24,000 nt of DNA. Origin: Prochlorococcus sp. AG-418-I20. GTDB taxonomy: Bacteria > Cyanobacteriota > Cyanobacteriia > PCC-6307 > Cyanobiaceae. Of the stretch, positions 1,391 to 22,659 are shown in pieces. The DNA is taken from the NCBI GenBank assembly GCA_003214175.1, contig QCLZ01000003.1:1-24000 (forward strand). The letters are read 5' to 3'. The translations under genes and the position numbers were made by a program. The notes beneath the pieces are model-generated. The model was not told the DNA's origin. It made no database searches and saw nothing but the letters and a program-made list of their open reading frames with translations. Each line of letters starts with the position of its first letter. The stretch's first letter is position 1.

Positions 1391-1417
1391 GAGCTAGTGC
1401 TCTATGGTCACTAGGTC
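1391..1417. other. symmetric att-core-like site GAGCTAGTGC-TCTATGG-TCACTAGGTC
   Basis: Two 10-bp inverted arms flank a 7-bp spacer. The left arm equals the tRNA fragment core GACCTAGTGC with 1 mismatch. Confidence 0.65.
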
Positions 1418-1440
1418 TTATTAATCCATATTTGATTTTG

Positions 1441-1475
1441 TGAACAGTCGATCTGAATTAGAGGTTTACTCCTCT
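1441..1475 (+). promoter_or_regulatory. island leader element copy P2 (variant TGAACAGTCGATC + TGAATT + hairpin AGAGG/CCTCT)
   Basis: Same architecture as the other copies. An ATG at 1476 abuts the stem and opens a 34-codon ORF that overlaps the convergent gene end. Confidence 0.5.
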
Positions 1476-1563
1476 ATGTTTTATCGACTATCAATCATAA
1501 TTAATTTAGCGGTGCACGAATTAAGCGTTTCATATATTCAGAATAAATGGTTGTTTTTTGGAT

Positions 1564-1953
1564 CTAGTGCCAATTATTAATTGCACAAATAGCTTTGAGG
1601 TGCTTCTTAGTTCTCCAAAGACAATGAACCAATCTGCCACTTGGATTTTGGTATGGTTTTAGTCCTTGGTGCAATCCATTTTTAATTCGTTCTAAGTAAA
1701 AAGATGACCTTTCTTTTTGATAAGGATAAACAGTAAGACTTTTGACTAATCCTTTATTACTAGGATCTATTTCCACATCACATGCTCCTAAAATTTCCCA
1801 TTTAATACCCTCTCCAAGTCCACCTACTCCATATTGATTTGATGTCATTTGAAGACATGTAGTTTCTATAGGTTTTGAGAAATCAACTGGGTGAGCAACA
1901 ACAGGTACTAAAAATTGAGAAATGATATGGCTTAGAAATAAGAAGCGTTTCAT
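1564..1953 (-). CDS. secreted hypothetical protein, 129 aa
   Basis: ATG start. The N-terminus MKRFLFLSHIISQFLVPVVAHP is signal-peptide-like, and the 5' nucleotides ATGAAACGCTT are shared with the secreted-protein family. Confidence 0.7.
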   Translation of the reverse strand: MKRFLFLSHIISQFLVPVVAHPVDFSKPIETTCLQMTSNQYGVGGLGEGIKWEILGACDVEIDPSNKGLVKSLTVYPYQKERSSFYLERIKNGLHQGLKPYQNPSGRLVHCLWRTKKHLKAICAINNWH

Positions 1954-2037
1954 TTGATATTCAAATCTTTAGATATTGATTATCATTTTGATACGTTTTG
2001 CATTCAATATTCCGAATTGTCAGCTTAAGTAAAATTA

Positions 2038-2802
2038 ATGGAAATTCTATTTTTAATTATTTGTTTTATTTTTCTTTTTATCCTAGCTGCATTCTCTGAG
2101 GATATGGGATTCTGGGTAGGCACAAAGCAGGTAGCTTTAGAAGAAAACATTAAAAAAAATATTAAAAATATTCTAAAAAATAATAAAGAAAATTCTAGAA
2201 AATCTTATAGAAATCAAAAAAGATTAGTAGGAAACATAAGGAATATTGAAGAGTTAGACGAAATTATGTTTGAGACTGCAAAAAGATTTGCAAGTAGTTT
2301 AGAGGTTAGTAATCAAGATATTCCTTTACTTGGAAATGCTCTAGGGATTGGATATCTACTAAATACCTATTTCACTTTTTTTATTAGAAGTAAAGTTTTT
2401 CCGGAAGATATTTCTCTGGCAGAGGATTTCTACTCAAAAGATAGAGACTTAGTAATGGGTATATCAACTTTTTTTTTAATAGCTAAAAAGAATTATAAAA
2501 AATCTGGATCAACTCTCGCTTTAGGGGTTGAGGGTCTAAAACATGTTTCTTTTTTGATGCATAAGTGCTCAAAGAAAAATCTTGAAGATAGACTTTGCGA
2601 TAAATCTGAGATAATTCCTTTGAAAGAATTATTCAGAGCTTATTCAAGCGAATATGAAAAAGGTGTTGAGACATTAAAGGCAACATATAAAATGATTGAT
2701 ATCAATAGTGAATATGAAAGATACTCAGATGATTTCAACAAATTGCTTTTAGATTTGAAATTATTCGTATTTGATAGTCCATATGATCAAACTAATTATT
2801 AA
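2038..2802 (+). CDS. hypothetical protein with N-terminal TM anchor, 254 aa
   Basis: Long ATG ORF with a hydrophobic N-terminus (ILFLIICFIFLFILAAF). No domain recognised. Confidence 0.7.
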   Translation: MEILFLIICFIFLFILAAFSEDMGFWVGTKQVALEENIKKNIKNILKNNKENSRKSYRNQKRLVGNIRNIEELDEIMFETAKRFASSLEVSNQDIPLLGNALGIGYLLNTYFTFFIRSKVFPEDISLAEDFYSKDRDLVMGISTFFLIAKKNYKKSGSTLALGVEGLKHVSFLMHKCSKKNLEDRLCDKSEIIPLKELFRAYSSEYEKGVETLKATYKMIDINSEYERYSDDFNKLLLDLKLFVFDSPYDQTNY

Positions 2803-2831
2803 ATAAACTAGATATAAAATACTTAGAGGAT

Positions 2832-3068
2832 TTAGCTCCAAAGAGATGAAAAGCCAATCACAATAATCGCAATTTGCAAAACCCCAGCAGATAAAGCCAG
2901 AAGTTTATTACCTCCATCAATCCCATTCTTTTCAACATCACCTCTGACCATTTCAGTAACGAACCAACTAACTATTACAAGTAATATAAATCCACCTAAT
3001 TGACTATCACCCCAGTATTTATATATACCCACTAGAGCAAAAATTCCTGAAAAAAATCCTGTCCCCAT
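2832..3068 (-). CDS. small multi-pass membrane protein, 78 aa
   Basis: ATG ORF with about three hydrophobic stretches. Confidence 0.6.
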   Translation of the reverse strand: MGTGFFSGIFALVGIYKYWGDSQLGGFILLVIVSWFVTEMVRGDVEKNGIDGGNKLLALSAGVLQIAIIVIGFSSLWS

Positions 3069-3246
3069 TTATTAAGTAATCAACTTTAAACTTTTAATTA
3101 ATTTATAGCGATATTGGCATTATTGGTAATGCCTGCAATATAAGTTATTGTCCTCTCAAATAAATAAAATGTTTACTACTTGCACAATCCAATCTTTGAT
3201 AGAAGAGGGCGATGCACCATGCAAAGCTATGCAAGGTATTGCAAAT

Positions 3247-3268
3247 GATCGCCCAGAGATCGCCCAGA
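3247..3268. repeat. segment-private tandem repeat GATCGCCCAGA x2
   Basis: Perfect 11-bp tandem. It is the partner of 1366-1387, and the upstream CAAAG..TATGCAA context is also shared. Confidence 0.8.
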
Positions 3269-3295
3269 GAGTATTTAAGAATCGTGAGAAGTCAA

Positions 3296-3340
3296 TCGGG
3301 GCGACAGGATTCGAACCTGCGACCTAGTGCTCCCAAAGCA
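3296..3340 (-). repeat. partial tRNA-Pro(UGG) 3' segment, copy b
   Basis: TCGGGGCGACAGGATTCGAACCTGCGACCTAGTGCTCCCAAAGCA. Confidence 0.9.
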
Positions 3341-3467
3341 TTCGATCTATTATTTGAGATTATAAAACAAAACTAAGCTATGACTAGGTTATAACCAAGA
3401 GAGTAGAACGAGTTTGAGTCTCAATATTGTACAAAGTTATAGTTCTATATACAAAATATATAACCTC

Positions 3468-3490
3468 AGCTCCTCCTTTAGCTCCCCCGG
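3468..3490. repeat. segment-private tandem repeat AGCTCCTCCTT-T-AGCTCCCCCGG
   Basis: The partner ACTCCCCCTAC|AGCTCCCCTTT lies at 7644-7665 at the other end of the segment. Confidence 0.7.
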
Positions 3491-3493
3491 AGT

Positions 3494-3520
3494 GACCTAG
3501 TGCCTCATGTTAACTAGGTC
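3494..3520. other. symmetric att-core-like site GACCTAGTGC-CTCATGT-TAACTAGGTC
   Basis: 10-bp inverted arms flank a 7-bp spacer, located 4 nt after the tandem repeat. Confidence 0.7.
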
Positions 3521-3554
3521 GAAGAAATGATGTTTTTAACTCTGGACCATACAC

Positions 3555-3710
3555 TTAAATTGAAGAACAAAAGTGATGAAATCTTTGATCATCAACGTCA
3601 GCCATTAAATCATATTCCTCTAATTTTTTTGTAATCCTTTTATATTCAATATCATTTACAAAATGAGCTATATATTTTTCTAAAAAATTTATATTGATTT
3701 TTTGTTTCAT
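3555..3710 (-). CDS. hypothetical 51-aa protein
   Basis: Hand-found ATG..TAA ORF (MKQKININFLEKYIAHFVNDIEYKRITKKLEEYDLMADVDDQRFHHFCSSI) with no homology evidence. Confidence 0.35.
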   Translation of the reverse strand: MKQKININFLEKYIAHFVNDIEYKRITKKLEEYDLMADVDDQRFHHFCSSI

Positions 3711-3925
3711 TAATATCCTTTATTTATTAATAGCTATAAATTCTCTTTTTAACTTTTATTGAATAATTGTTCCTTATAAATTGAGAAAATCTAAAAAAGT
3801 CTAATAAGTACAGCTTATAGAGGGTATGAGAGTAAGTAATTATACTCACACTTATGCTTTTCAGTCATTAGATTTGTTTCAAGATTGCATTAGGAAGCGT
3901 CTTAGCTAAATAGCCAACCAAACAA

Positions 3926-4060
3926 ATGAACGAAACAAAAACAGTTGAGAAGGAAAAAATCGTAGCTGAGAAGCTCAACGGTAGATTTGCGATGATTGGG
4001 TTTATTGCCCTTATAGGTGCATATCTAACAACAGGACAAATTATTCCAGGGTTTGTATAA
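3926..4060 (+). CDS. hli: high-light-inducible protein (HLIP, one-helix CAB/ELIP/HLIP family), 44 aa
   Basis: Translation MNETKTVEKEKIVAEKLNGRFAMIGFIALIGAYLTTGQIIPGFV carries the HLIP signature E-x-x-NGR-x-AM-x-GF and a TGQIIPG tail. Confidence 0.9.
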   Translation: MNETKTVEKEKIVAEKLNGRFAMIGFIALIGAYLTTGQIIPGFV

Positions 4061-4168
4061 ATGGATTTTTCATCTAAAAGACAAGGTTATGTACCCCTTA
4101 AGATGGTTCCTTACATATTCTTTGTTGCAGTTGTTTTAAGCATCACAACAACAAATACATTCGTATAG
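4061..4168 (+). CDS. 35-aa TM peptide immediately after hli
   Basis: Its ATG abuts the hli stop codon. Sequence MDFSSKRQGYVPLKMVPYIFFVAVVLSITTTNTFV, followed by a terminator. Confidence 0.4.
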   Translation: MDFSSKRQGYVPLKMVPYIFFVAVVLSITTTNTFV

Positions 4169-4193
4169 TTTTTAAAAACTTGCATTGTCATGA

Positions 4194-4227
4194 AAGTCAG
4201 CTGGTAGGGATACAGGCTGACTTTTTT
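4194..4227 (+). terminator. rho-independent terminator of the hli operon
   Basis: Stem AAGTCAGC / GCTGACTT with a 14-nt loop, followed by a T-run. Confidence 0.7.
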
Positions 4228-4328
4228 AATGGTAGTTGAGCAATTGACTTGGGAGAATCAAATTAAAACCAATAATTAAAAAATAGAGAATATTAAATTA
4301 AATCTTTACTTTTTGAACCGCTATCAAC

Positions 4329-4469
4329 TTATTCCAAATCAGTATCAAATTCAGGTCTAAACTTAGTAAGTTTAGAAATTTCTAATTTTAGTTCCTCTTC
4401 GGAATTAAATCCTAGTTCTCTGTAGGATTCTAGACCTAGTGAGGCTTCTCTTTTTAAAATTATTTTCAT
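4329..4469 (-). CDS. hypothetical acidic 46-aa protein
   Basis: Hand-found ATG..TAA ORF (MKIILKREASLGLESYRELGFNSEEELKLEISKLTKFRPEFDTDLE). Confidence 0.35.
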   Translation of the reverse strand: MKIILKREASLGLESYRELGFNSEEELKLEISKLTKFRPEFDTDLE

Positions 4470-4604
4470 ATCCCATAAGTTTCTAAATTAATACTAGTTT
4501 TTAATAATTTAATTAAGTTACTAAGTTGTTGATTCAAGACCGTTTGACCAATTTATTAATTGACAATCTATTTACAATGTATAAATGAACCCCTTCTTTT
4601 ATTT

Positions 4605-4736
4605 ATGAAAGAAACAGGATTTAACTTAACTCAAGGAATTGCTTTGCTACTTTTGAAAACATTAAACTTGCCTGTTAATTACGTTCTAAATTTAATAATT
4701 TACATAACTAACCCTAGAAATAATATTGGTTATTAA
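4605..4736 (+). CDS. hypothetical 43-aa peptide
   Basis: ATG ORF downstream of TTGACA(4560)-N-TATAAA, a diverged relative of the leader element. Confidence 0.3.
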   Translation: MKETGFNLTQGIALLLLKTLNLPVNYVLNLIIYITNPRNNIGY

Positions 4737-4764
4737 TTATGCCTCTCGAAGTGAAAAAAATTAA

Positions 4765-5058
4765 ATGAAGGTTCTCGAAGATATCGCATCCGATTTAGAA
4801 CAAAGAATTACTGATGCTTCCATAGGTAATTCTTCTAGGCCAACTATCTTATTCTGTGGCTGCGACCCTCGACTTAAAAAGGATTTGCATAAACGTGCAA
4901 AGCGTATTGGCTTTAATCCATCTTACTCAATAAAACATCCATCTATTAAAGTGGAATTGCAGAATTTTGGGAATAGAAAAATAGAAAGAGATAGGTTTAA
5001 GACAATAACTATGGACTATGAAAACTTTGAATTTATTTGTAGGTATCTAGAGAGTTAA
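4765..5058 (+). CDS. hypothetical protein, 97 aa
   Basis: ATG ORF with balanced composition. No motif recognised. Confidence 0.6.
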   Translation: MKVLEDIASDLEQRITDASIGNSSRPTILFCGCDPRLKKDLHKRAKRIGFNPSYSIKHPSIKVELQNFGNRKIERDRFKTITMDYENFEFICRYLES

Positions 5059-5285
5059 GCATCTTTCAAAGATCTATTTTTGTTCTTGTGTTATTGTTAA
5101 TAAATCTCAGGTAGAGATAAGACTAAGCAATATTGACCAGCTAAAGAATTTTTGAAAAAGAATCCCACCTGCAAGAGTCAAATACTTTCTGATAAACAAA
5201 TTGTGTTGATCTATCCCATAGAGCGAATGCAAAGAATAAAAATCACTTATTAAGCCTGTGTATATAAAACTAAAAAAGTAAACTA

Positions 5286-5420
5286 ATGAAAAAACTAAAC
5301 AAAAAATATGCTGAATTAATGCGCAAGGCTCAACAAGCTACTGGAAGAAAAGAGGCAGTTGGATTAATCCATAAAGCAGCAAAGTTAAAAACCAAATTTG
5401 ATCAATACGAGATGATGTAA
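5286..5420 (+). CDS. hypothetical basic helical 44-aa protein
   Basis: Hand-found ATG..TAA ORF (MKKLNKKYAELMRKAQQATGRKEAVGLIHKAAKLKTKFDQYEMM), 26 nt upstream of the DUF1330 gene. Confidence 0.4.
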   Translation: MKKLNKKYAELMRKAQQATGRKEAVGLIHKAAKLKTKFDQYEMM

Positions 5421-5446
5421 TCTAATTGAAACACTAATATAAATAA

Positions 5447-5788: not shown

Positions 5789-5919
5789 TATATATGTAAG
5801 TTTTTCTACTCGTTACATAGCGAATAAAGAGTTAGAGTATGAACAATGGAAGCATTTGATTGGAGATAACTTCACTAGTCCAAAGCAACTATTTATACCT
5901 TCACAAAAAAATTAAAGAA

Positions 5920-6207: not shown

Positions 6208-6257
6208 TTTTTATTACTTTGCGATTCTGAAGATTATCAGTATAAATCAAAAGAAAA

Positions 6258-6512: not shown

Positions 6513-6639
6513 ATTGAATACCTTATCTTAGTAAAAGTATCCTAATACTTTGTGATGGATTTTTTGTGTAACTAGAGAGACTGTTATATGTATATGTTGC
6601 TTTTTGAATCCTTCACATATTTGTTTTTATAGGCAAAAA

Positions 6640-7735: not shown

Positions 7736-7787
7736 TCGGGGCGACAGGATTCGAACCTGCGACCTAGTGCCCCCAAATCACTAGTTC
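7736..7787 (-). repeat. partial tRNA-Pro 3' segment, copy c (variant, fully symmetric core)
   Basis: TCGGGGCGACAGGATTCGAACCTGCGACCTAGTGC-CCCCAAA-TCACTAGTTC. The loop is altered and the right arm is extended into a 10-bp inverted repeat. Confidence 0.85.
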
Positions 7788-7881
7788 AGAAGACCCTATA
7801 TCTACGATTTGAAGCTATAACAACAGTTATAAGCCCTTTTTTCTTCTAAAACCTTATAAGACTTTCTAATTCTTATTGGAT

Positions 7882-7903
7882 TTTTCCCTAAATTTTCCCT
7901 AAA
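7882..7903. repeat. segment-private tandem repeat TTTTCCCTAAA x2
   Basis: Perfect 11-bp tandem. Partner TTTTCCCTGA|TTTTTCCCTAA lies at 8505-8525. Confidence 0.8.
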
Positions 7904-7906
7904 GTT

Positions 7907-7933
7907 GATCTAGTGCTCCACAAGGTTCTAGGA
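7907..7933. other. degenerate att-core-like site GATCTAGTGC-TCCACAA-GGTTCTAGGA
   Basis: The left arm matches the core 9/10. In the right arm only the CTAG centre is conserved. Confidence 0.4.
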
Positions 7934-8554: not shown

Positions 8555-8590
8555 TCGAGGATACATGATTCGAACCTGCGACCTAGTGCT
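8555..8590 (-). repeat. degenerate partial tRNA-Pro 3' segment, copy j
   Basis: TCGAGGATACATGATTCGAACCTGCGACCTAGTGCT. The T-arm and core are retained, the acceptor part has decayed, and the anticodon loop is replaced by TTTTATT. Confidence 0.7.
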
Positions 8591-8616
8591 TTTATTTAAA
8601 GAGTAAAAATATTATT

Positions 8617-8660
8617 GATTGACAGTCGATCTAACTTAGAGGGATAAAACCCTCTTTTTT
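8617..8660 (+). promoter_or_regulatory. island leader element copy P3 (GATTGACAGTCGATC + TAACTT + AGAGGG-ataaaa-CCCTCT + T-run)
   Basis: Canonical copy. There is no plus-strand gene downstream, and it faces the 3' end of the convergent gene 8659-8889. Confidence 0.7.
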
Positions 8661-8889
8661 AATGGTTATGTTTGTGCATACTGCATGGCATCCATTTATC
8701 ACCCATTTGATGAGCGCCTTCACAACCAAATTTATAGGCCTCTTTTTCTGCCTCTTCTTTCGTATTAAATAACATCGGCATTTCCATTTCTTTTTCTACT
8801 GGTTTATTTGAACATCCGAATATAAAAATTGATATAGAAAGAAAAGGAATAAGAGAAATAAAGTGTTTCAAAATTAATTCATAAATCAA
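8659..8889 (-). CDS. small lipoprotein with C/H-rich C-terminus, 76 aa (or 70 aa)
   Basis: Lipobox FIFGC and C-terminal GCEGAHQMGDKWMPCSMHKHNH. The start is TTG at 8889 or an in-frame TTG at 8871 (MKHFISL...). Confidence 0.65.
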   Translation of the reverse strand: MIYELILKHFISLIPFLSISIFIFGCSNKPVEKEMEMPMLFNTKEEAEKEAYKFGCEGAHQMGDKWMPCSMHKHNH

Positions 8890-8953: not shown

Positions 8954-8999
8954 GATTGACAGTCGATCTAAAGTAGAGGGATAAAACCCTCTTTTTTTT
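8954..8999 (+). promoter_or_regulatory. island leader element copy P4 (GATTGACAGTCGATC + TAAAGT + AGAGGG-ataaaa-CCCTCT + T8)
   Basis: Canonical copy. The T-run runs straight into the ATG at 9000. Confidence 0.7.
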
Positions 9000-9059
9000 A
9001 TGGATAGAAGATTTATTGCTGAAAAGATTATGACTCTAATTATTTCTTTGATTGGTTAA
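9000..9059 (+). CDS. 19-aa micro-ORF (MDRRFIAEKIMTLIISLIG)
   Basis: The only support is its position directly after leader element P4. Confidence 0.2.
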   Translation: MDRRFIAEKIMTLIISLIG

Positions 9060-9847: not shown

Positions 9848-9889
9848 TTGACAGTAGATATAAAATTAAGTGAAATTAGGCTGTCTTTT
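9848..9889 (+). promoter_or_regulatory. diverged leader element copy P12 (TTGACAGTAGATA + TAAAAT)
   Basis: 10 of 13 positions of the invariant block are kept and a TANNNT box is present. A GTG start follows at 9890. Confidence 0.4.
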
Positions 9890-10381
9890 GTGAAGAAATT
9901 TTTCCTCCCTTTTCTTGTTGTTCTTGCTTTGCCTTCGTCTGTTAATGCTGGATATTCATCAAGCATTGATTTAATGACTGATGAAACAAAAATTAGGATT
10001 TTTCACAATTCTATTACCAAAGTGTCAAATTCAATAGGTATTCCTGAGACGGCAACAATCTGGATAAGATGCAGTCTTAAAAATGGTAAGACTACAAATC
10101 TAGAAGCATTTATTAAAACTCCTACATATAACTCAGATAATAATAAAGTTGGATTACGTTGGGATTCTGGAGAACCTATAAGAACTTCTTGGAACGAGTC
10201 AACATCGGGTACATCACTATTCAACCGAGATCCAAAAAAATTTATTAACAAGTTATTAGAATCTAATACATTAGTTTTCCAATGGACTCCTTATCAATCC
10301 ATTCCTCAAGCGGTTAAATTTGATTTAATAAAAATGAAGCCAGATATTATTCGAGCTAAAAATGATGGATGTGAATACTAA
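9890..10381 (+). CDS. secreted hypothetical protein, 163 aa (GTG start)
   Basis: Starting at GTG 9890 gives the signal peptide (M)KKFFLPFLVVLALPSSVNA|GY. The ORF-track TTG at 9845 lies inside the leader element. Confidence 0.65.
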   Translation: MKKFFLPFLVVLALPSSVNAGYSSSIDLMTDETKIRIFHNSITKVSNSIGIPETATIWIRCSLKNGKTTNLEAFIKTPTYNSDNNKVGLRWDSGEPIRTSWNESTSGTSLFNRDPKKFINKLLESNTLVFQWTPYQSIPQAVKFDLIKMKPDIIRAKNDGCEY

Positions 10382-10758: not shown

Positions 10759-10805
10759 TCGGGGCGACAGTATTCGAACCTGCGACCTAGTGCTCCCAAA
10801 GCACT
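10759..10805 (-). repeat. partial tRNA-Pro(UGG) 3' segment, copy d
   Basis: TCGGGGCGACAGTATTCGAACCTGCGACCTAGTGCTCCCAAAGCACT, with one substitution in the T-arm. Confidence 0.9.
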
Positions 10806-10893
10806 TAATAGCCGTAGTTCAGCACTAGGTTTTAAAGCTATATCTAATTATTTGCTTGGTTCTGCGAAGTTTGTCGTGACAAATAAAGTAATA

Positions 10894-13422: not shown

Positions 13423-13469
13423 TCGGGGCGACAGGATTCGAACCTGCGACCTAGTGCTCCCAAAGCACT
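13423..13469 (-). repeat. partial tRNA-Pro(UGG) 3' segment, copy e
   Basis: TCGGGGCGACAGGATTCGAACCTGCGACCTAGTGCTCCCAAAGCACT. Confidence 0.9.
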
Positions 13470-13556
13470 TAACAAGCCCAGTTGGACACTATGTCTACAG
13501 GCCATGACTAAATAGTTGCGGGGTATTGCAGGATTTAACATGACAAACCATGGTGA

Positions 13557-15449: not shown

Positions 15450-15499
15450 TAGGGGCGACAGGATTCGAACCTGCGACCTAGTGCTCCCAAAGCACCCGC
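15450..15499 (-). repeat. partial tRNA-Pro(UGG) 3' segment, copy f (long form)
   Basis: TAGGGGCGACAGGATTCGAACCTGCGACCTAGTGCTCCCAAAGCACCCGC. Identity extends through the whole anticodon stem. Confidence 0.9.
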
Positions 15500-15623
15500 T
15501 ACGCAAAATGCGACAGCCCCCATGAGAAACAAGTGAGGCTATGGCTTATTAGTTGATATTAAATGAAAATTGATGAGTCTTAAAAATTAGCAAGATATAG
15601 CAAGGTGGTGCATAAATAAGCAA

Positions 15624-15645
15624 AATCTCGCTCAAATCTCGCTCA
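15624..15645. repeat. tandem repeat AATCTCGCTCA x2
   Basis: Perfect 11-bp tandem, 5 nt before the symmetric core. No identical partner was found. Confidence 0.75.
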
Positions 15646-15650: not shown

Positions 15651-15677
15651 GACCTAGTGCCCTAAGAGCACTAGCTC
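15651..15677. other. symmetric att-core-like site GACCTAGTGC-CCTAAGA-GCACTAGCTC
   Basis: 10-bp inverted arms (1 mismatch) flank a 7-bp spacer. Confidence 0.7.
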
Positions 15678-15697: not shown

Positions 15698-15741
15698 GAT
15701 TGACAGTCGATCTAACATAGAGGGATAAAACCCTTTTTATA
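15698..15741 (+). promoter_or_regulatory. island leader element copy P5 (GATTGACAGTCGATC + TAACAT + AGAGGG-ataaaa-CCCTTT)
   Basis: Canonical copy. The ATG of the lipoprotein gene follows at 15742. Confidence 0.75.
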
Positions 15742-15969
15742 ATGAAAAGAATTTATTTATTTCCTCTTTTTCTTCTACTAATAACAGGCTGTGAATATCT
15801 TTCTTTATCTCAAGCTAAAAAAGCTTGTTATCGATGGGGTCTTAATAGTGATATTGAACGTGGTAATTGGGATTGTAAACTTAACAAATCTAATATGGAA
15901 TACCTATTAATTAATGAATACTCTGACGATGGCATATACGATCCTAAAGTAATAAAAAAATTTAAATAA
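15742..15969 (+). CDS. small lipoprotein, 75 aa
   Basis: MKRIYLFPLFLLLITGC carries a lipobox (LITGC). Confidence 0.7.
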   Translation: MKRIYLFPLFLLLITGCEYLSLSQAKKACYRWGLNSDIERGNWDCKLNKSNMEYLLINEYSDDGIYDPKVIKKFK

Positions 15970-15995
15970 TATAGCTTTTCATTGATATTTATTTC

Positions 15996-16037
15996 TTGAC
16001 AGTCGATCTAACATGGAGGGATAAAACCTTTTTTTTT
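15996..16037 (+). promoter_or_regulatory. island leader element copy P6 (TTGACAGTCGATC + TAACAT + GGAGGG-ataaaa-CC + T-run)
   Basis: The right arm of the hairpin has partly decayed into the T-run. An ATG follows at 16038. Confidence 0.7.
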
Positions 16038-16343
16038 ATGTCTTGCTCTGTTACCTCTGTGTTTACTTTTAAGATTGAAAGTACTTTCGATGAATGGTCT
16101 GCAATATTTGATAGTGCAGAAGCTGATAAAAGGCATTCTGAATTTGAAATTAAGCCTTTATTTAGAGGAGTAAGTAAAGAAGATCCTCAAAAAGTTATTG
16201 TTATTCATCAAGCTCCAGAAGGTAATGTTCAAAAGTTTGTGGAAGCAAACGGTGACTGGATGGCAACCCATAGAGTTGACTTATCAACGATGGAGGAAAC
16301 GTCTTGGACTGCTTCATTAAGAAAAGATAGTTGTTGTGATTAA
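16038..16343 (+). CDS. hypothetical cytoplasmic protein, 101 aa
   Basis: Start moved to the ATG at 16038, because the ORF-track TTG at 15996 is the TTGACA of the leader element. Confidence 0.65.
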   Translation: MSCSVTSVFTFKIESTFDEWSAIFDSAEADKRHSEFEIKPLFRGVSKEDPQKVIVIHQAPEGNVQKFVEANGDWMATHRVDLSTMEETSWTASLRKDSCCD

Positions 16344-16346: not shown

Positions 16347-16859
16347 GTGAAACGCTTACTACTTACACTTCTAGCTGCTATCTCCTTACCTAATCCTATT
16401 AATGCAGAAGAATTACCAAAAAGACTTTATGGTTCATGGCAATTTACTTCAACAGCTGGTGAAGCTGTAATTGGAGAACTCACAATCACTAAAGAGTATG
16501 TAGCGTATGGATCATCTCTTAATGGAGTTTGTAGTGACTCATACAAGGTTAAAAGATTAAAAGATGATAATGACTATCCTAATAATATGGTTGAAGATAC
16601 AAGAGGTTATATCTCCTATAGGACCTATAGATTAATTCTTGATAATCCTGAGAATTGTGTCCATAAAGATGATACGCTCCAAATATCTTTTGAACAGATT
16701 CCAATAGGATCCTTTAAAAATATTTATCCTGATGAACCGAAGTTTATTAATAAAATTGCCTTGGTTACTTATATTGATGGGAGAGTAACTGGTTGGTTTT
16801 CAAATGGATTTAAACTAACGGAATATATTAGAAAACCTTGGTCATGGGGAGAATTATGA
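16347..16859 (+). CDS. secreted hypothetical protein, 170 aa (GTG start)
   Basis: Signal peptide (M)KRLLLTLLAAISLPNPINA|EE, belonging to the conserved signal-peptide family. Confidence 0.7.
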   Translation: MKRLLLTLLAAISLPNPINAEELPKRLYGSWQFTSTAGEAVIGELTITKEYVAYGSSLNGVCSDSYKVKRLKDDNDYPNNMVEDTRGYISYRTYRLILDNPENCVHKDDTLQISFEQIPIGSFKNIYPDEPKFINKIALVTYIDGRVTGWFSNGFKLTEYIRKPWSWGEL

Positions 16860-17788: not shown

Positions 17789-17803
17789 AACTCTGACTAC
17801 CTT

Positions 17804-17848
17804 GATTGACAGTCGATCTAAAATTGAAGGGATAAAACCCTCTTTTTT
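17804..17848 (+). promoter_or_regulatory. island leader element copy P7 (GATTGACAGTCGATC + TAAAAT + GAAGGG-ataaaa-CCCTCT + T-run)
   Basis: Canonical copy. The ATG at 17849 abuts the T-run. Confidence 0.75.
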
Positions 17849-18151
17849 ATGCCATACGATAAAGACGGAGAATATTATAGGAAGGCTGTAGTACCTCAAA
17901 AAAAAGAGGATTCTGTAGATAATTTTATAAAAAAATCAAAAAAGCAAGCTAATATTCTAGCCATTCTAATTTTAGCAGGAATTGCAGGTGGTCTCGGAGC
18001 TATTATTTTCTGGCCTAAGAAAGAACTTCCAAAACCTAATATGAATTTACAAGGAGCAGAAAGATATTATGATCTGTGCCTGCAGTTGCGAAATTATCAA
18101 GGTATATCAAAAGAAGGATGTGAGACTATTCTTGAAAATCCTGATTTATAA
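17849..18151 (+). CDS. single-pass membrane protein, 100 aa
   Basis: ATG ORF with a central TM helix ILAILILAGIAGGLGAIIFW. Confidence 0.65.
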   Translation: MPYDKDGEYYRKAVVPQKKEDSVDNFIKKSKKQANILAILILAGIAGGLGAIIFWPKKELPKPNMNLQGAERYYDLCLQLRNYQGISKEGCETILENPDL

Positions 18152-18155
18152 ACTA

Positions 18156-18446
18156 ATGAAACGCTTACTACTCCCACTACTAGCTGCAATCGTTTTACCC
18201 ACTGCTGTTAATGCTGAAAGTTACGATGCTTCTGTTGCCAAAAATCAATGGCCTAAAATGCAAAAATTGCTCGATAATGCAGAAGGTTTTCTGGATATTG
18301 GAGACATGAATGCAGCCTGTAGCAAATTAAGAGAATATGACCTTTTACTAGGAATGAATTTTGAGGGATTACAAGAGCTCTATCCAAGTACTGATTGGTT
18401 TAAAATAAAGAAGCATTCAAACGAAATAATTAAAGATTTTTGTTAA
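18156..18446 (+). CDS. secreted hypothetical protein, 96 aa
   Basis: The ATG at 18156 gives MKRLLLPLLAAIVLPTAVNA|ES. The ORF-track start at 18069 overlaps the previous gene. Confidence 0.7.
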   Translation: MKRLLLPLLAAIVLPTAVNAESYDASVAKNQWPKMQKLLDNAEGFLDIGDMNAACSKLREYDLLLGMNFEGLQELYPSTDWFKIKKHSNEIIKDFC

Positions 18447-18488
18447 AACAAATTAAACGCATAATACTTGCCCCGCTATATTAATTAC

Positions 18489-18533
18489 GATTGACAGTCG
18501 ATCTAATATAGAGGGATCAAACCCTCTTTTTTT
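18489..18533 (+). promoter_or_regulatory. island leader element copy P8 (GATTGACAGTCGATC + TAATAT + AGAGGG-atcaaa-CCCTCT + T-run)
   Basis: Canonical copy. The ATG at 18534 abuts the T-run. Confidence 0.75.
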
Positions 18534-18893
18534 ATGCGTAAATCATTAGTAACTTTATTAGCTGCATTTACTTTACCCACTGCTGTTAATGCCTCTGTTC
18601 CTTTCCTTTATGTAAATGGTGGAACCATGGGCGATTATGAAAGTGTGAATGAATGCTTAAACATAGCAATGAGAGAAATGAAAATGGCAGGATTTACAAA
18701 AATTGTTAAATCTGGTCTTGACAAAAAAAACAAAAAACAGGCTACTATTATTGCCGATCATTCATGGAGACCAGCCACAATAACTTATAGATGTTTTGAA
18801 GATCTAAAGGTATATTCGTGGGGAGTTTCAGCAATAGTTAATGATGATGCTTACGAAACTTATATTGATATGAATAATGCCTTTGGTAAATGA
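18534..18893 (+). CDS. secreted hypothetical protein, 119 aa
   Basis: Signal peptide MRKSLVTLLAAFTLPTAVNA|SV. Confidence 0.7.
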   Translation: MRKSLVTLLAAFTLPTAVNASVPFLYVNGGTMGDYESVNECLNIAMREMKMAGFTKIVKSGLDKKNKKQATIIADHSWRPATITYRCFEDLKVYSWGVSAIVNDDAYETYIDMNNAFGK

Positions 18894-19264
18894 AACGCTT
18901 ACTAATCCCACTACTAGCTGCCCTCGCTTTACCTACGGCTGTTAATGCTGAAACTTGGGTACAAGCAGCAAGTTTGATGCATGATGATGCTAAACCAGGC
19001 ACACTGGGATATTTTTTATGTAAGGAAAATAATGATTGTGGAATGGGATTGTTTGTTGATGTCAAATCTATAGTTAAAAGAGGTGATTTTGTTTACTTCA
19101 ATTTCGATACAAAACCTTTAAACAAATATGCTGTTCCAAAAGATAGAGAATTTGAAGCTGTAGGGTGGACTGCTGATTGCAAAAAAAAACTATTGGGACC
19201 AAATTTAAAAATGAGGCCGGCTTCAGAAAGGGAAATAAAGTTATTAAAACTTGTTTGTGATTAA
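18890..19264 (+). CDS. secreted hypothetical protein, 124 aa
   Basis: The ATG overlaps the upstream stop codon (ATGA). Signal peptide MKRLLIPLLAALALPTAVNA|ET. Confidence 0.7.
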   Translation: MKRLLIPLLAALALPTAVNAETWVQAASLMHDDAKPGTLGYFLCKENNDCGMGLFVDVKSIVKRGDFVYFNFDTKPLNKYAVPKDREFEAVGWTADCKKKLLGPNLKMRPASEREIKLLKLVCD

Positions 19265-19316
19265 GATTATTTAGTGAAAAAATAATGATATTCCCTGCGA
19301 TAAAGCCACTAGTAAA

Positions 19317-19349
19317 ATGAAACGCTTACTTACACCTCTTGAATTATGA
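19317..19349 (+). pseudogene. truncated signal-peptide remnant (MKRLLTPLEL*)
   Basis: The first 15 nt, ATGAAACGCTTACTT, follow the family 5' end. The frame stops after 10 codons. Confidence 0.45.
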
Positions 19350-19438
19350 ATAACGATTTTTAAAAAGGATTCTTAACTGGTTCAGGTGGATTATTAGGAG
19401 TTCTATCCATACCAGTTGGGATTTATCTCATATATTTT

Positions 19439-19672
19439 TTGATTAAGCTCTTATTCGTCCCAACAACAAACTTGTTATTAAGAAAAACGGAATATTTGAA
19501 TTGGAAAGATTGCCTTAAGGAGACACAAGCAGAAAGAAGTTACCAACCTATTAAAAGGGGGTATAGAGATAATAATATCTCTGCAGTTGTTCAACTACAA
19601 AAGGAGTATTGCGGGAGAAGACCAAATGAATGGAAGTGGCAATTAGAGACATACTACAAACCATCAAAATAA
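19439..19672 (+). CDS. hypothetical protein, 77 aa, possibly 5'-truncated
   Basis: TTG start. The frame stays open upstream through a TM-like stretch (GSGGLLGVLSIPVGIYLIYF) without any start codon. Confidence 0.35.
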   Translation: MIKLLFVPTTNLLLRKTEYLNWKDCLKETQAERSYQPIKRGYRDNNISAVVQLQKEYCGRRPNEWKWQLETYYKPSK

Positions 19673-19760
19673 TGGAATTGGGAATAGGTTCTTTTTAGAC
19701 AATTTAATGTGGGTCATCTGAAAGCACGATCATTTTGGAAGAATACTATTAGATGGTATT

Positions 19761-19808
19761 TAGCGATTAAGCCTACTAGGTATATCAAAGCTATACAAAT
19801 AATCGCTA
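19761..19808 (+). repeat. 48-bp perfect direct repeat, copy 1 (flanks the protease cassette)
   Basis: TAGCGATTAAGCCTACTAGGTATATCAAAGCTATACAAATAATCGCTA, identical to 20825-20872. Confidence 0.9.
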
Positions 19809-19822
19809 AATAATAGCTAGAG
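19801..19822. repeat. segment-private tandem repeat AATCGCTAAAT|AATAGCTAGAG
   Basis: Partner of 20865-20886. It is followed by the half-core GACCTAGTGT at 19826-19835. Confidence 0.65.
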
Positions 19823-19933
19823 GTAGACCTAGTGTCTTTAATGGGGTTTTATGTAATTTATGACTTAGTAAAAATGAAAACTATAATTTGATAATATTTT
19901 AAAAAACGAACTAAACTAACTAAAGCTTTTATC

Positions 19934-20827
19934 TTGGTTTTGAAAATCAAAAACTATCTAATATTTTTTTCTCTGATTGGTTTACTTTTGACGTTTAAAA
20001 TTAATTATTTTGGAAAAAATTCAATTTATTTTATGCCTAAAGAGTATAAAACTATAAAAAAATTAGTGGATAAAATAGCATCTAAAAATTACTTGGGCGA
20101 TAAAGAAATCCCTTTTTTTATTGGAAGTGGAAGGTATATGGAAATAAGGGCAAAAGAATTAGGTTTATGTGAAGAGGATGATTGCTGGTATTACAATAAT
20201 TTAAGTCCATATAAGAATTATAAAAATGTTGAGGGAATAAATCTTAATGAGCTTATAAAACAATCATATTTGTTCAATGGAATTGAAGCCTATGCTTGGA
20301 GAGGGATAGTTTGGTTAAGTCAATCTACTTTTCGAACTTATGGAAAAGATAAAAAATTTCTAAACTGTACTATTGGTCATGAATTATCTCATGTGATTTT
20401 TGATGATCATATTGAGCAGAGTATTAAACTATCAAATTCTTTAAAAGAAATAGAGAATCAAAATAAAAAAGATTCAAGCAGTAAAACACAAAAAGAAGTA
20501 AAAGAAAATATAAGACTAAAATTAAGTAGAGAATCTGAAAAGATAGCTGATATTAATGCCGCAAAAATGATTATTAATGCAGGATATCCTAAAGAAACTT
20601 GTATAGATGAATTAATCTTCCTCACTCAATCATCAAAGTTAGATGCTGATACTGAAACTGATTCAACTCATCCAGGTTTTATTGAGCGCATTGCCTCACT
20701 TGAAGAATTCATAGATAAATATGATCTAAATAAAGAGATTACAGAATTTAAGCCTTACAAGTGGACATGGAGTTATGACAGTACCTCTAAATTATTAAAG
20801 TTTAAACCTGAACCTAGCGATAACTAG
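19934..20827 (+). CDS. HExxH zinc metallopeptidase, M48-like, 297 aa
   Basis: N-terminal TM helix, GHELSH, and a downstream ESEKIADINAAKMI motif (E-x-x-AD with third-ligand spacing) as in M48 peptidases. The start codon is TTG. Confidence 0.7.
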   Translation: MVLKIKNYLIFFSLIGLLLTFKINYFGKNSIYFMPKEYKTIKKLVDKIASKNYLGDKEIPFFIGSGRYMEIRAKELGLCEEDDCWYYNNLSPYKNYKNVEGINLNELIKQSYLFNGIEAYAWRGIVWLSQSTFRTYGKDKKFLNCTIGHELSHVIFDDHIEQSIKLSNSLKEIENQNKKDSSSKTQKEVKENIRLKLSRESEKIADINAAKMIINAGYPKETCIDELIFLTQSSKLDADTETDSTHPGFIERIASLEEFIDKYDLNKEITEFKPYKWTWSYDSTSKLLKFKPEPSDN

Positions 20828-20872
20828 CGATTAAGCCTACTAGGTATATCAAAGCTATACAAATAATCGCTA
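20825..20872 (+). repeat. 48-bp perfect direct repeat, copy 2
   Basis: Identical to 19761-19808. It begins at the stop codon of the protease gene. Confidence 0.9.
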
Positions 20873-20886
20873 TTTAATCGCTATTT
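20865..20886. repeat. segment-private tandem repeat AATCGCTATTT x2
   Basis: Perfect 11-bp tandem and partner of 19801-19822. It is followed by the tRNA flank and fragment g. Confidence 0.8.
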
Positions 20887-20958
20887 GAGTTTTTAAGACA
20901 AATGAGAAATAAAAAAGGCAACCTTGGGATGGCTTCCTATGACTTGGTTTTGATTGAG

Positions 20959-21008
20959 TCGGGGCGACAGGATTCGAACCTGCGACCTAGTGCTCCCAAA
21001 GCACCCGC
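20959..21008 (-). repeat. partial tRNA-Pro(UGG) 3' segment, copy g (long form)
   Basis: TCGGGGCGACAGGATTCGAACCTGCGACCTAGTGCTCCCAAAGCACCCGC. Confidence 0.9.
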
Positions 21009-21092
21009 AAGATTAAAACTATAATTGAGACTTAAAGCTTTATCAGGCTTTTAGAGAAAAAAGTTTGGACTTATTCGGACTTATATGTTCGA

Positions 21093-21113
21093 TTTTGGGC
21101 ACTTTTTGGGCAC
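21093..21113. repeat. segment-private tandem repeat TTTTGGGCAC|TTTTTGGGCAC
   Basis: Partner TATGGGCAC|TTTTTGGGCAC lies at 22351-22370. A second tandem TTTGGACTTAT|TCGGACTTAT lies at 21064-21084. Confidence 0.8.
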
Positions 21114-21133
21114 ATAATTTAAGAAGTTATTAA

Positions 21134-21175
21134 TTGACAGTCGATCAAAAATAAGGGGCAATTCGCTCCTTTTTT
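21134..21175 (+). promoter_or_regulatory. island leader element copy P9 (TTGACAGTCGATC + AAAAAT + AGGGGC-aattc-GCTCCT + T-run)
   Basis: Both arms of the hairpin differ from consensus but still pair. It faces the 3' end of the convergent gene 21209-21586. Confidence 0.6.
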
Positions 21176-21208
21176 GGTGAATAGATTTTTAATTTAAGTG
21201 AATATGGG

Positions 21209-21586
21209 TTATTTCCATAAAGAAAGTCCCAAACGAATATATGGCTTAAGCTGCCAACCCCAAAAACCAAAACCAAATACTAAGAATTGAGGAAATATAC
21301 GAATTATCAATAAAATAATGCCACCTCTTCCTCTTGCTTTTGAAGAAATATTACTTATTTCATTTGAATCAAATATTGGAGGTTCATAAGTGCCCCATAA
21401 ATGGAAACCTTGCAAAACCATTATCAAACAAGAAAAGGCACCGATAATTGAGATTAATAATAGAGCTTTAGCTTTTATAGATCCTTTTTTTATAGATCCT
21501 TTTTCCATTTCTGGATCAAAAGCTCCGCAAACAATTAAAGATAGAAACCCTATTAGAGCAAACCATGCTGCAGTTGATCCGTTCAT
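21209..21586 (-). CDS. multi-pass membrane protein, 125 aa
   Basis: ATG ORF with several TM helices. It contains an in-frame 15-bp tandem duplication (KKGSI KKGSI). Confidence 0.6.
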   Translation of the reverse strand: MNGSTAAWFALIGFLSLIVCGAFDPEMEKGSIKKGSIKAKALLLISIIGAFSCLIMVLQGFHLWGTYEPPIFDSNEISNISSKARGRGGIILLIIRIFPQFLVFGFGFWGWQLKPYIRLGLSLWK

Positions 21587-21673
21587 GAATTAAGAAATAG
21601 TTATTAAGTAAAATAATCCCAATAAAGAATTTCAAATCTATAAATTTATAAATTAAGATAATTTATTTTTCAC

Positions 21674-22258
21674 TTATAAATTAATGTTATTTCTTTCCTT
21701 TTCTAACATTTTTATTAGGTATTCATATGCTTCATTAACTAGCTTAAATTCCTCTTCTGCATTTTTATCATTTTTATTTAGATCAGGATGCCATTGTCTA
21801 GCTTCTTTGCGATAAGCCTTCTTAAGCTCAGATTCATCAAAATCTTCTGAAAGATCAAAGAAGGAAATATAATCTAAATCTTCAAGACTTCTTTGCGGCC
21901 TATTTCTAATTTTATCTTGTTCATCCTTTTTCTCTTTAACCTCCTTTTTTTTAAATTTACTTTCATCTACAACATAATTTTCTTTTATAGTGATTTTTAG
22001 TTTTTTTATTGATTCTCTTAATTTTATATTCTCATAACCAACAAAAAATATTACGCCTACAAGTAAAAATTGCCCAAATTGAAGGATTGGATCTAATCTC
22101 CATCCTTGATAAAAAAGAATTAAACCGCATACCCAAAAAATTGGAACAAGAAATGGGTCATATTTAGTAGATATTGATTTCTTAAAGAAAGGAACAAAAC
22201 CAGCCAATATCAAGGCGATACCGACTATGCTGGCCCAATTTAATGAAGCGTTAAACAT
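21674..22258 (-). CDS. membrane-anchored J-domain (DnaJ-like) protein, 194 aa
   Basis: N-terminal TM helices. The C-terminal J domain reads [38 protein letters not shown] and carries the HPD motif. Confidence 0.85.
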
Positions 22259-22350
22259 ATATATATAACCCTCTAGAGAATAAGTTAAAAGTTATTTAAT
22301 TAAGGATAAATATAGAACTTATAGAAATCAATATTTTGAAAATAAATTAT

Positions 22351-22370
22351 TATGGGCACTTTTTGGGCAC
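22351..22370. repeat. segment-private tandem repeat TATGGGCAC|TTTTTGGGCAC
   Basis: Partner of 21093-21113. Confidence 0.8.
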
Positions 22371-22422
22371 TCTACTCTTTAGGTTAAATATATTATTGGC
22401 TGAGACTTACTGCTATAACTGA

Positions 22423-22472
22423 TCGGGGCGACAGGATTCGAACCTGCGACCTAGTGCTCCCAAAGCACCCGC
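22423..22472 (-). repeat. partial tRNA-Pro(UGG) 3' segment, copy h (long form)
   Basis: TCGGGGCGACAGGATTCGAACCTGCGACCTAGTGCTCCCAAAGCACCCGC. The left flank GAGACTTACTGCTATAACTGA is shared with copy a. Confidence 0.9.
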
Positions 22473-22596
22473 CCTCCAATTTGAGACAGTTACCTAAATA
22501 AACAAGTCAGGCTATTGCATGTTAGTTGCAATATCAGAGGAGTTGTGAGTCTCAAAAAGAGGTCAAAGGTATACAAAATTATCCATAAATATACAA

Positions 22597-22618
22597 TTCC
22601 TCGCCCGTTTGTCGCCCG
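22597..22618. repeat. segment-private tandem repeat TTCCTCGCCCG|TTTGTCGCCCG
   Basis: Partner ATCCTCGCCC|ATTCCTCGCCC lies at 23494-23514. It is followed by the half-core GACCTAGTAC at 22624-22633. Confidence 0.75.
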
Positions 22619-22659
22619 CCTCCGACCTAGTACTTTTATTCAAAGAGTAGAATATTATT

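Follow-up and report, generated by a model that had tools for sequence, protein, structure and literature searches.

A 24,000-nt stretch of Prochlorococcus sp. AG-418-I20 (contig QCLZ01000003.1, positions 1–24,000 of the forward strand; hereafter the window) is made up of tandemly arrayed, integrase-less cassettes from tycheposon-type tyrosine-recombinase elements that target tRNA-Pro(UGG), and each partial tRNA in it is an attachment (att) junction. Several cassettes carry a short symmetric site that reproduces the nucleotides next to the presumed crossover region in the tRNA-Pro att site, as the first-pass annotation of this DNA had proposed. Sequence comparison leads us to read these sites, tentatively, as putative accessory core-type integrase-binding sites in an attP-derived arm, which may also act as occasional pseudo-crossover points. 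Each site is a discrete unit and a recurrent mosaic junction.

Symmetric sites in a tRNA-Pro array

The window is the interior of a high-light Prochlorococcus tRNA-Pro(UGG) island, with ~30% G+C and small cargo genes. Ten 46-nt tRNA 3′ fragments bound its cassettes, which are 92–96% identical to sequences of high-light Prochlorococcus single-cell genomes. The first fragment lies at 1190–1235 on the minus strand, which carries the tRNA sense; the other nine lie at 3296–3341, 7736–7781, 8555–8600, 10759–10804, 13423–13468, 15450–15495, 20959–21004, 22423–22468 and 23590–23635. ARAGORN found no intact tRNA in the window. In the available part of the tycheposon preprint (bioRxiv 10.1101/2020.12.28.424599), tRNA-Pro(tgg) is among seven targets, scattered partial tRNAs are taken to record one integration after another, a divergent tyrosine recombinase adjoins the tRNA and mitomycin C co-induces the integrases.

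The native tRNA-Pro gene, CGGGGCGTGGCGCAGCTTGGTAGCGCGGGTGCTTTGGGAGCACTAGGTCGCAGGTTCGAATCCTGTCGCCCCGA, was recovered from four related loci. In the orientation of the window its core reads GACCTAGTGC tcccaaa GCACCCGCGC, with a symmetry of 4–5 bp only, close to the 5 bp given by the first-pass annotation. The anticodon loop is reportedly a crossover sublocation of tRNA-integrating elements in Williams's classification, and the crossover is presumed to lie there in these elements too, given the position of the 46-nt identity block.

The symmetric sites were compared with the reference pattern GACCTAGTGC-N7-GCACTAGGTC (10-N7-10), mismatches being counted to the perfect form. Three sites on the plus strand stand apart from the fragments: (i) 1391–1417 (GAGCTAGTGC tctatgg TCACTAGGTC; two mismatches), 176 nt after the core at 1215, 3 nt after a tandem repeat at 1366–1387 and 26 nt before a leader element at 1444; (ii) 3494–3520 (GACCTAGTGC ctcatgt TAACTAGGTC; two mismatches), 173 nt after the core at 3321; and (iii) 15651–15677 (GACCTAGTGC cctaaga GCACTAGCTC; one mismatch), 176 nt after the core at 15475, 6 nt after a tandem at 15623–15644 and 22 nt before a leader at 15700. 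The fourth, 7761–7787 (plus strand; GACCTAGTGC ccccaaa TCACTAGTTC; two mismatches), is the core of a tRNA-Pro fragment whose element-derived right flank completes the palindrome. All four are symmetric at 8–9 of 10 positions around 7 bp, and their left arm is the 10 nt that border the anticodon loop in the native gene and in every fragment. The 10-mer GACCTAGTGC occurs 21 times in the window at ≤1 mismatch against 0.22 expected, and the 10-N7-10 pattern six times at ≤3 mismatches against an expectation of 0. Chance is thus excluded, and the positions and sequences first noted for the sites hold, as do the tandems 3–6 nt before 1391, 3494 and 15651 and the leaders after the first and last of these.

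Two ordinary fragments, at 1215 (two mismatches) and 3321 (three), also pass the full-pattern threshold because their element-derived right flank, GCA(C/T)TCGATC, is more symmetric than the native tRNA. A left arm identical to the core flank, together with right flanks more symmetric than the native tRNA, points to GACCTAGTGC as a preferred half-site.

Three further copies on the plus strand are left half-sites. The copy at 7907–7933 (GATCTAGTGC tccacaa GGTTCTAGGA) follows a TTTTCCCTAAA ×2 tandem (7882–7903) and has only CTAG, shifted by 1 nt, for a right arm; 19826–19835 (GACCTAGTGT) follows the tandem 19798–19819 with no fragment or arm upstream, as in fused cassettes; and 22624–22633 (GACCTAGTAC) lies 176 nt after the core at 22448 and is followed by ttttattCAAAGAGTAG and a leader. 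They had been called a weak site and two half-sites, and left arms, plus the shifted CTAG, are indeed all they hold. The stretch 19760–19835, consisting of a preamble, the tandem and the left half-site, has its best match in the left-hand arm at 20825–20883, an apparent fusion of two cassettes.

A second arrangement of half-sites, with a 1-nt spacer, occurs in arms without a secondary site. In the window it is degenerate (10811–10831, plus strand; (G)CCCTAGTGC-A-GCACTAGGTT) and lies at +27 to +47 in an arm family that has no symmetric site. The intact palindrome, CCTAGTGC-A-GCACTAGG, is found 27 nt past the core at locus L034 (6661–6683), and again at L012:3639.

Decayed tRNA fragments would have been a simpler source of such sequences. 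Alignment, the check that the first-pass annotation had named for this candidate, set it aside: the sequence to the left is a tandem rather than a T-arm, and the arm on the right is an inverted match to its partner instead of resembling GCACCCGCGC of the tRNA 5′ half.

Arm-type repeats and the arrangement of cassettes

Each core is flanked by 11-bp ×2 tandems ~75–130 nt to its left and ~105–175 nt to its right, which are probably arm-type integrase sites. The tandem beside the first symmetric site (1366–1387, plus strand) has its motif repeated at the other end of the cassette, at 3247–3268. Further pairs are 3467–3488/7644–7662, 7882–7903/8505–8525, 22597–22618/23494–23515, 19798–19819/20862–20883, 10893–10915/13330–13352, 13557–13583/15357–15377 and 21093–21113/22353–22375; the tandem 15623–15644 has no partner in the window. 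Six of these tandems (1366–1387, 3467–3488, 15623–15644, 7882–7903, 19798–19819 and 22597–22618) are followed, 3–6 nt later, by a symmetric site or half-site.

The right tandem of one fragment thus carries the motif of the left tandem of the next (GATCGCCC, AGCTCCCC, TTTTCCCT and TTTGTCCGC, and likewise TTTGTCGGC, TTTTGGGCAC and CCTCGCCC). This is what an array of integrated circles predicts if attP has the same repeats on both arms. The motif differs between cassettes, and more than ten specificities share one tRNA core. Across loci the tandem ends match in ten cassettes and differ in seven, and the latter look like fused cassettes. In an IMG/VR contig (L103) one motif flanks a single fragment on both sides, and a recombinase gene follows. 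Closely related integrases (L040–L042) have a common tandem motif and distant ones have other motifs. Both arms of one superfamily share a 10-bp-phased preamble, xGCAAAGnTA repeated three to four times, ahead of the repeat.

To the left of most fragments, including six in the window (family D7), stands the native tRNA 3′ flank with its terminator; the elements therefore carry this flank. Downstream of the symmetric sites lies the leader element (family D2), typified by 15700–15738 (plus strand; TTGACAGTCGATCTAAnnTAGAGGG, a hairpin, a T run and ATG), with other copies near such sites at 1444–1475, 8619–8660 and 22662–22685.

We also considered the tandems as mimics of the tRNA 3′ end. TTTGTCGCCCG and GATCGCCCG (22597–22618 and 1366–1387) resemble TGTCGCCCCGA in the orientation opposite to the fragments, and the resemblance is statistically unconvincing.

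Distribution and variation of the sites

A scan for the exact pattern in 185,579 species genomes, one genome per species, returned 36 loci. Twenty-nine are in Prochlorococcus, and all of these but L037, where 8 nt of T-arm stand beside the symmetric site, contain tRNA-Pro fragments; the other seven are chance perfect palindromes in unrelated bacteria. Sites of this kind are thus particular to the tRNA-Pro arrays of ~30 Prochlorococcus genomes, those of strains MIT 9107, MIT 9201 and MIT 9302 (L010, L015 and L017) included. Viral contigs gave four unrelated chance matches to the pattern. The genome loci were picked by pattern, and estimates of diversity from them are hence biased.

Exact-pattern sites occur in two contexts: as secondary sites following a tandem, and in fragments that owe a complete palindrome to their right flank TCACTAGGTC. 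The second context is that of the 7761 arm family (TCACTAGGTC agaagaccctata...), present at ten other loci. Homologues of site 3494 are found at L012, L028, L030 and L032, and the family of site 15651 at L008, L011, L014 and L026. The arrangement seen at 7907 recurs at +146/147 in L009, L022, L025, L035 and L038, and the variant at 22624 recurs at L010:528.

Among 55 copies of the 10-mer without a preceding T-arm, ~40 follow a tandem, and right arms match at 9/10 positions at best and at 1/10 at worst. The left half-site is therefore the constant feature and the palindrome its commonest elaboration. The full palindrome, which had been taken as the defining unit, stands as such at 1391, 3494, 15651 and 7761, but the invariant part is the left half-site. 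The 25 distinct sites likewise combine a nearly invariant left arm with a variable right arm and have 22 different spacers, those of the three secondary sites in the window all being different. The spacer TCCCAAA appears once, at L029:7144, in a diverged tRNA fragment, and never in the sites that follow a tandem.

The left half-sites that follow a tandem are all oriented like the left arm of the core, and in one arm superfamily they start 1–13 nt (usually 3–6) past the right-hand tandem. Sites lie 125–186 nt from the core, with a mode of 174–176 nt and a distance of 146 nt in the TTTTCCCT family; a left half-site (≤1 mismatch) was found at +100 to +200 in 35 of 90 fragments. We found no consistent helical phase over core–site distances of 125, 134, 146, 158, 162, 173–176 and 186 nt.

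An unbiased sample was drawn from metagenome contigs anchored on the tandem AATCTCGCTC ×2. Of its 40 right-hand arms, 23 have the full site, of the 15651 family, and three the left arm only; in the other 14 unrelated DNA begins 0–6 nt past the repeat.

Half-sites and the recombinase

Extra copies of the core-type half-site are not confined to one arm family. An additional GACCTAGT or ACTAGGTC (≤1 mismatch) is present in 57 of 90 right-hand arms, compared with 9% of shuffled sequences. The copies fall at discrete offsets (+19, +27/+40, +62, +125 to +186 and +192 to +195), which differ by family, and the arm families that bear them are otherwise unalignable. In autonomous relatives (L016, L040–L042 and L044) the half-site stands between the tandems and the start codon of the recombinase, the gene beginning 5–35 nt beyond; in L045 it stands at +70.

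Recombinase genes adjoin the fragments at L016, L040–L042 and L103. Their products are ~420-aa tyrosine recombinases that form a separate family adjoining the tRNA fragment. The AlphaFold model (predicted local distance difference test score, pLDDT, 84) places a helix–three strands–helix module at residues 6–73, before a Cre-like two-domain body, and the modelled fold is compatible with a candidate arm-binding domain.

Two Synechococcus elements offer a comparison of arm and target. Strain CC9605 has AGATGCC in the arm and AAGATGCC in its own tRNA, and MIT S1220 has TGATGCC in the arm and ATGATGCC in its own tRNA. The two tRNA-Pro genes differ at one position of this segment, and each arm 7-mer matches its own tRNA. 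Although the sample is small (two elements), this sequence agreement points to an arm half-site that follows the recombinase's target.

Other palindromes are present at the same place in integrase-bearing relatives. A perfect palindrome, TTCCACGGAnTTCCGTGGAA, lies between the tandems and int (L040:4058–4080, L041:320–345, L042:2458–2478 and 2240–2262), and L044 has TTCCCACGCTTGTGGGAA (145–165). The half-site of the L042 palindrome also makes direct repeats on the opposite arm.

Junctions at the sites

Looking up the proteins of the window in other assemblies gave either a 2.1-kb contig of the same sequence or nothing. As this was uninformative, breakpoints were mapped against the pattern-derived loci.

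Fragments and sites can be fused. At 8567–8606 (plus strand; W:8580) the T-arm and GACCTAGTGC are joined directly to ttttattTAAAGAGTAA and then a leader, matching the sequence after the half-site at 22624; the analogous fusion at L018:3268 keeps the full right arm.

Sites can also join different cassettes. L030 has the entire cassette that lies to the right of 3494, bounded by a fragment at either end, and L012, L028 and L032 have it with the left end included. In L020, L005 and L010, by contrast, homology to it sets in at base 1 or 2 of the site, and what stands to the left differs: the L020 site (433) follows the stop codon of a gene, a third repeat family stands to the left at L005:557, and at L010:3761 the left side comes from the 15651 family, the spacer, right arm and cargo from the 3494 family. 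Similarly, L010:2358 and L026:1586 are unrelated on the left but share ~97% identity from tgcGACCTAGTGC rightwards. One cargo is joined through the site to four or five different left contexts.

In the unbiased set the sequences diverge just before the left arm in 14 cases, at the left-arm/spacer boundary in three or four and just after the right arm in ~8; no divergence point falls inside an arm or spacer in this set. The junctions as a whole lie within the 12-nt left-arm identity, at the left-arm/spacer boundary or at the outer edges. The first-pass annotation had proposed a search of related genomes for breakpoints in the 7-bp spacers: junctions do fall on the sites, but never in the spacer interior.

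The reciprocal product of an exchange with the tRNA core (a tandem, the left arm and tcccaaaGCAC) was not found. The only candidate for a reciprocal junction is L074:119–175, which reads tandem, AACCTAGTGC, tcccaaa and then unrelated DNA, and is ambiguous. All fragment–site and site–site chimeras can equally be explained as deletions between 12-nt direct repeats and thus stop short of demonstrating site-specific exchange.

A model of the sites and its alternatives

From the anatomy, recurrence, context and junctions described above we infer integrase binding and a possible regulatory or architectural role. Each tRNA junction joins the P arm of one element on the left (an 11-bp ×2 direct repeat, then the tRNA terminator) to the P′ arm of the next on the right (~110–150 nt, then an 11-bp ×2 repeat of like kind). 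The symmetric sites just outside the P′ repeats are idealised extra copies of the core-type half-site GACCTAGT(GC), which the recombinase would recognise next to the crossover region in the anticodon loop. With a putative N-terminal arm-binding domain anchoring it to the tandem repeats, the integrase could additionally fill the neighbouring core-type half-site or pair. Such occupancy may build or cap the attP nucleoprotein complex ~35–40 bp ahead of the first promoter, which serves int in autonomous elements and cargo in this window. The core-like look of the site might then permit an occasional pseudo-crossover or deletion with the tRNA core or another such site, which would either remove a 176-nt arm or swap arm modules against promoter–cargo modules. 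Since the sites lie inside an attP-like arm, and upstream of int in relatives, the binding or regulatory role that the first-pass annotation had named as its alternative fits at least as well as recombination.

Several observations weigh against this interpretation. No integrase gene was found in the window. One family lacks the site entirely in 14 of its 40 arms, about a third, and right arms are frequently decayed; the site is therefore inessential for persistence. In one family conservation is equal in spacer and arms and gives no sign there of arm-specific purifying selection. Junctions cluster at the outer left edge, unlike canonical cleavage at the arm/overlap boundary. The geometry near int is inconstant, the half-site being inverted in L040–L042, and some integrase-bearing elements, such as L103, have weak half-sites only.

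A doubtful alternative, the main idea of the first-pass annotation, is that the sites are true secondary att sites. The integrase, delivered by the neighbouring arm-type repeats, would exchange strands where the left arm meets the spacer, probably a single pair and in spite of spacers that do not match, replication would resolve the product, and promoter–cargo modules would move between integration modules independently of the tRNA copy. The 10-7-10 geometry suits a tyrosine-recombinase core, putative arm-type repeats are immediately adjacent, and exchange at the site could account for the hybrids at W:8580 and L018:3268, the chimeras at L010:3761, L010:2358/L026:1586 and L005:557, the single cargo with four to five left contexts and the three to four arms of the unbiased set that break exactly at the left-arm/spacer boundary. 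However, ordinary tyrosine recombinases require identical overlaps, and the spacers (tctatgg, ctcatgt and cctaaga) differ both mutually within one array and from TCCCAAA, which makes canonical two-strand exchange with the tRNA core or between different sites unlikely. Most junctions fall at the outer edges rather than in the overlap, the reciprocal product is missing apart from the ambiguous L074, and the same chimeras would follow from deletion between the 12-nt repeats. The right-arm type largely co-inherits with the tandem-repeat superfamily, and left-only variants lack the second arm, which also weighs against true att sites.

Alternatively, though this too seems unlikely, the sites could be functionless relics of a duplicated, T-arm-less symmetric attP core like that of the 7761-type fragment, inherited with the arm, and the junctions could reflect short-homology deletion or slippage among copies of gcGACCTAGTGC. 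The right arm of site 1391, TCACTAGGTC, is the right flank of the 7761 family, and the 8 nt of T-arm at L037 would fit such an origin; the decay of right arms in many lineages, the third of one arm family without a site and a within-family spacer conservation equal to that of the arms also speak for it. Yet a left half-site in the same orientation beside the tandem recurs in otherwise unalignable arm families, including those of integrase-bearing, higher-GC relatives, and the extra half-site follows the tRNA difference between the two Synechococcus elements. The unbiased set also shows whole retention or whole loss with sharp edges, which is unexpected under slow neutral decay.

It is improbable that the sites are operators for another dimeric regulator, of host or element, acting on the adjoining leader or int promoter, with the likeness to the tRNA incidental or the same protein exploited. 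The cyanobacterial LexA box, TAGTACA-N2-TGTACTA, has a similar half-site, the TAGTGC of the sites resembling its TAGTAC-type half, but the spacing between inverted arms is 7 or 1 nt here, and LexA was rejected on this ground. The half-site is exactly the tRNA core sequence and varies with the tRNA in the two Synechococcus elements, which speaks against an operator; a simple scan revealed no sigma-70-type promoter, and most leader copies lack a site. An operator would nevertheless suit the centre of the palindrome, ~35–40 bp upstream of the leader's TTGACA, the other palindromes in the same place upstream of int in L040–L042 and L044, and the co-induction of integrases by mitomycin C recorded in the available part of the tycheposon preprint (bioRxiv 10.1101/2020.12.28.424599).

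A nucleic-acid hairpin, whether a signal for RNA processing or termination or a single-stranded DNA structure such as attC or that of CTX phage, is very improbable and already largely refuted by the missing covariation: although the three best sites fold as DNA above shuffled controls (−5.6 to −7.4 kcal/mol; z −2.2 to −3.4), (i) two-sided compensatory changes number zero across the 25 distinct sites and every departure is one-sided, (ii) the two innermost pairs do not form in the largest family, (iii) the right arm is missing in many members, (iv) the stems are short and weak, with no T run past them, which also speaks against an intrinsic terminator, and (v) no Rfam family matches. Arms that vary independently and without compensation fit protein half-sites and not a hairpin, in keeping with the integrase-binding interpretation that we favour.

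Other features of the island

An Rfam search of the window at a permissive threshold gave only weak tRNA matches on the fragments and two sub-threshold matches. The fragment and right-hand arm at 15450–15520 (minus strand) together score 38.6 bits as a full tRNA in Rfam, and ARAGORN rejects them; this arm family holds a decayed tRNA 5′ half (GCACCCGCTACGCAAAATGCGACAGCCCCC, compared with the native GCACCCGCGCTACCAAGCTGCGCCACGCCCCG). At L040:609–685 there is an intact tRNA-Pro with its native 5′ flank, and further fragments lie 5′ of the gene, at 2344 and 3947. Fragments on this side of the tRNA are not predicted by simple growth of the island on the 3′ side only, and the gene may be a captured whole tRNA.

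The leader TTGACAGTCGATCTAAnnTAGAGGGATAAAACCCTCTTTTTTATG is present in nine copies (981–1029, 8617–8665, 8954–9002, 15698–15746, 15994–16042, 17804–17852, 18489–18537, 21132–21180 and 22660–22708). It is built of a conserved box, a GAGGG/CCCTC hairpin and a T run reaching the start codon. A simple consensus scan found no sigma-70 promoter at the leader, a terminator scan was likewise empty there, and the leader has no match in Rfam.

Another motif, (A/G)GCTAT(A/G)AC, lies at about +55 to +65 past each core in otherwise unrelated right-hand arms (e.g. 1277–1290, 3376–3392, 7812–7825 and 13500–13512), and the related TATGACTTGG lies between the terminator and each fragment. Both may be sites for accessory proteins.

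Near-identical signal peptides (MKRLLLPLLAA..LPTAVNA) stand at the start of several small cargo genes, and the repetition extends to their DNA (16347–16413, 18155–18222, 18533–18600, 18889–18956, 19315–19339 and 9889–9956 in the window). These genes look like a family of small secreted proteins with a common 5′ module.

Implications and comparison with known systems

Most flexible genes of Prochlorococcus reside in islands, and tRNA-targeted integration only partly explains how cargo is captured and reshuffled there. Our analysis gives a concrete anatomy for att in one such island, with a core, element-specific repeats on both sides and an extra idealised core at the cargo-side edge, which recurs as a mosaic junction across dozens of genomes and metagenome contigs. 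If the integrase binds or cuts at these sites, this would explain imprecise excision, cargo capture and cassettes with mismatched ends, and the recombinases could for the first time be tested biochemically, on defined substrates. Should strand exchange also take place, recombination between a fragment and a distal site could capture or delete whole cassettes, an integron-like layer of shuffling inside the tRNA-targeting elements of the most abundant phototroph that would be of high interest if shown. Even if the integrase neither binds nor cuts there, the sites still serve as markers for delimiting cassettes and arm families.

Like loxP and FRT, the sites consist of two inverted half-sites around a 7–8-bp spacer, and the predicted structure of the recombinase is closest to Cre. 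They differ in that the arms measure 8–10 bp rather than 13, the right arm is dispensable in many copies and the spacers are unconserved.

The likeness to integron attC and attI that the first-pass annotation had drawn lies in cassette-associated imperfect palindromes and in junctions at a conserved short core, and exchange here would need a heterology-tolerant single-strand exchange, as in those systems. The analogy fails on structure, and an attC was rejected for its size, position and enzyme. An attC is an imperfect palindrome (R″-L″/L′-R′) at the 3′ end of a promoterless cassette, with IntI encoded next to attI/Pc, and measures 57–141 bp. The sites described here are 27 bp long, have neither the extrahelical-base signature nor the hairpin covariation, and stand upstream of promoter-bearing cargo instead of 3′ of a promoterless open reading frame. 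At most one site is present per tRNA-delimited cassette, and an IntI-type integrase and an attI/Pc platform are absent.

Core-like sequences with a non-matching overlap could give rare products, as at the secondary att sites of lambda or in the XerC-only integration of CTX phage, and the fragment–site hybrids resemble such products. Such secondary sites lie dispersed over the host chromosome; here the element itself bears the site, at a set position within the arm, and reciprocal junctions were not found.

With the tycheposons the array shares the tRNA-Pro(tgg) target, the arrays of partial tRNAs and, in related loci, a tyrosine recombinase adjacent to the tRNA. The available text of the preprint (bioRxiv 10.1101/2020.12.28.424599) mentions no palindromes, arm-type repeats or secondary sites, and the fine structure of these sites appears to be undescribed in that part of it. 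A full-text literature search for the motif strings returned unrelated papers only, and a 2008 paper on non-coding RNA is silent on these repeats. We found no published description of an idealised core copy beside the outermost arm repeats or of its role as a module junction.

The overall plan resembles that of attP in lambda, P2 and HP1. The core lies in a tRNA anticodon stem-loop, element-specific tandem direct repeats occupy both arms ~100–150 bp from it, as in the P2-type layout with its repeats on both arms, int reads outward from the P′ arm in autonomous relatives, and the recombinase, according to its model, would have the extra N-terminal domain of those integrases. To our knowledge, a second and more symmetric core-type copy beside the outermost P′ repeats is not a standard component of attP. 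The array further differs from these attP sites in that most of its cassettes lack an integrase and more than ten repeat motifs are set around one and the same tRNA core.

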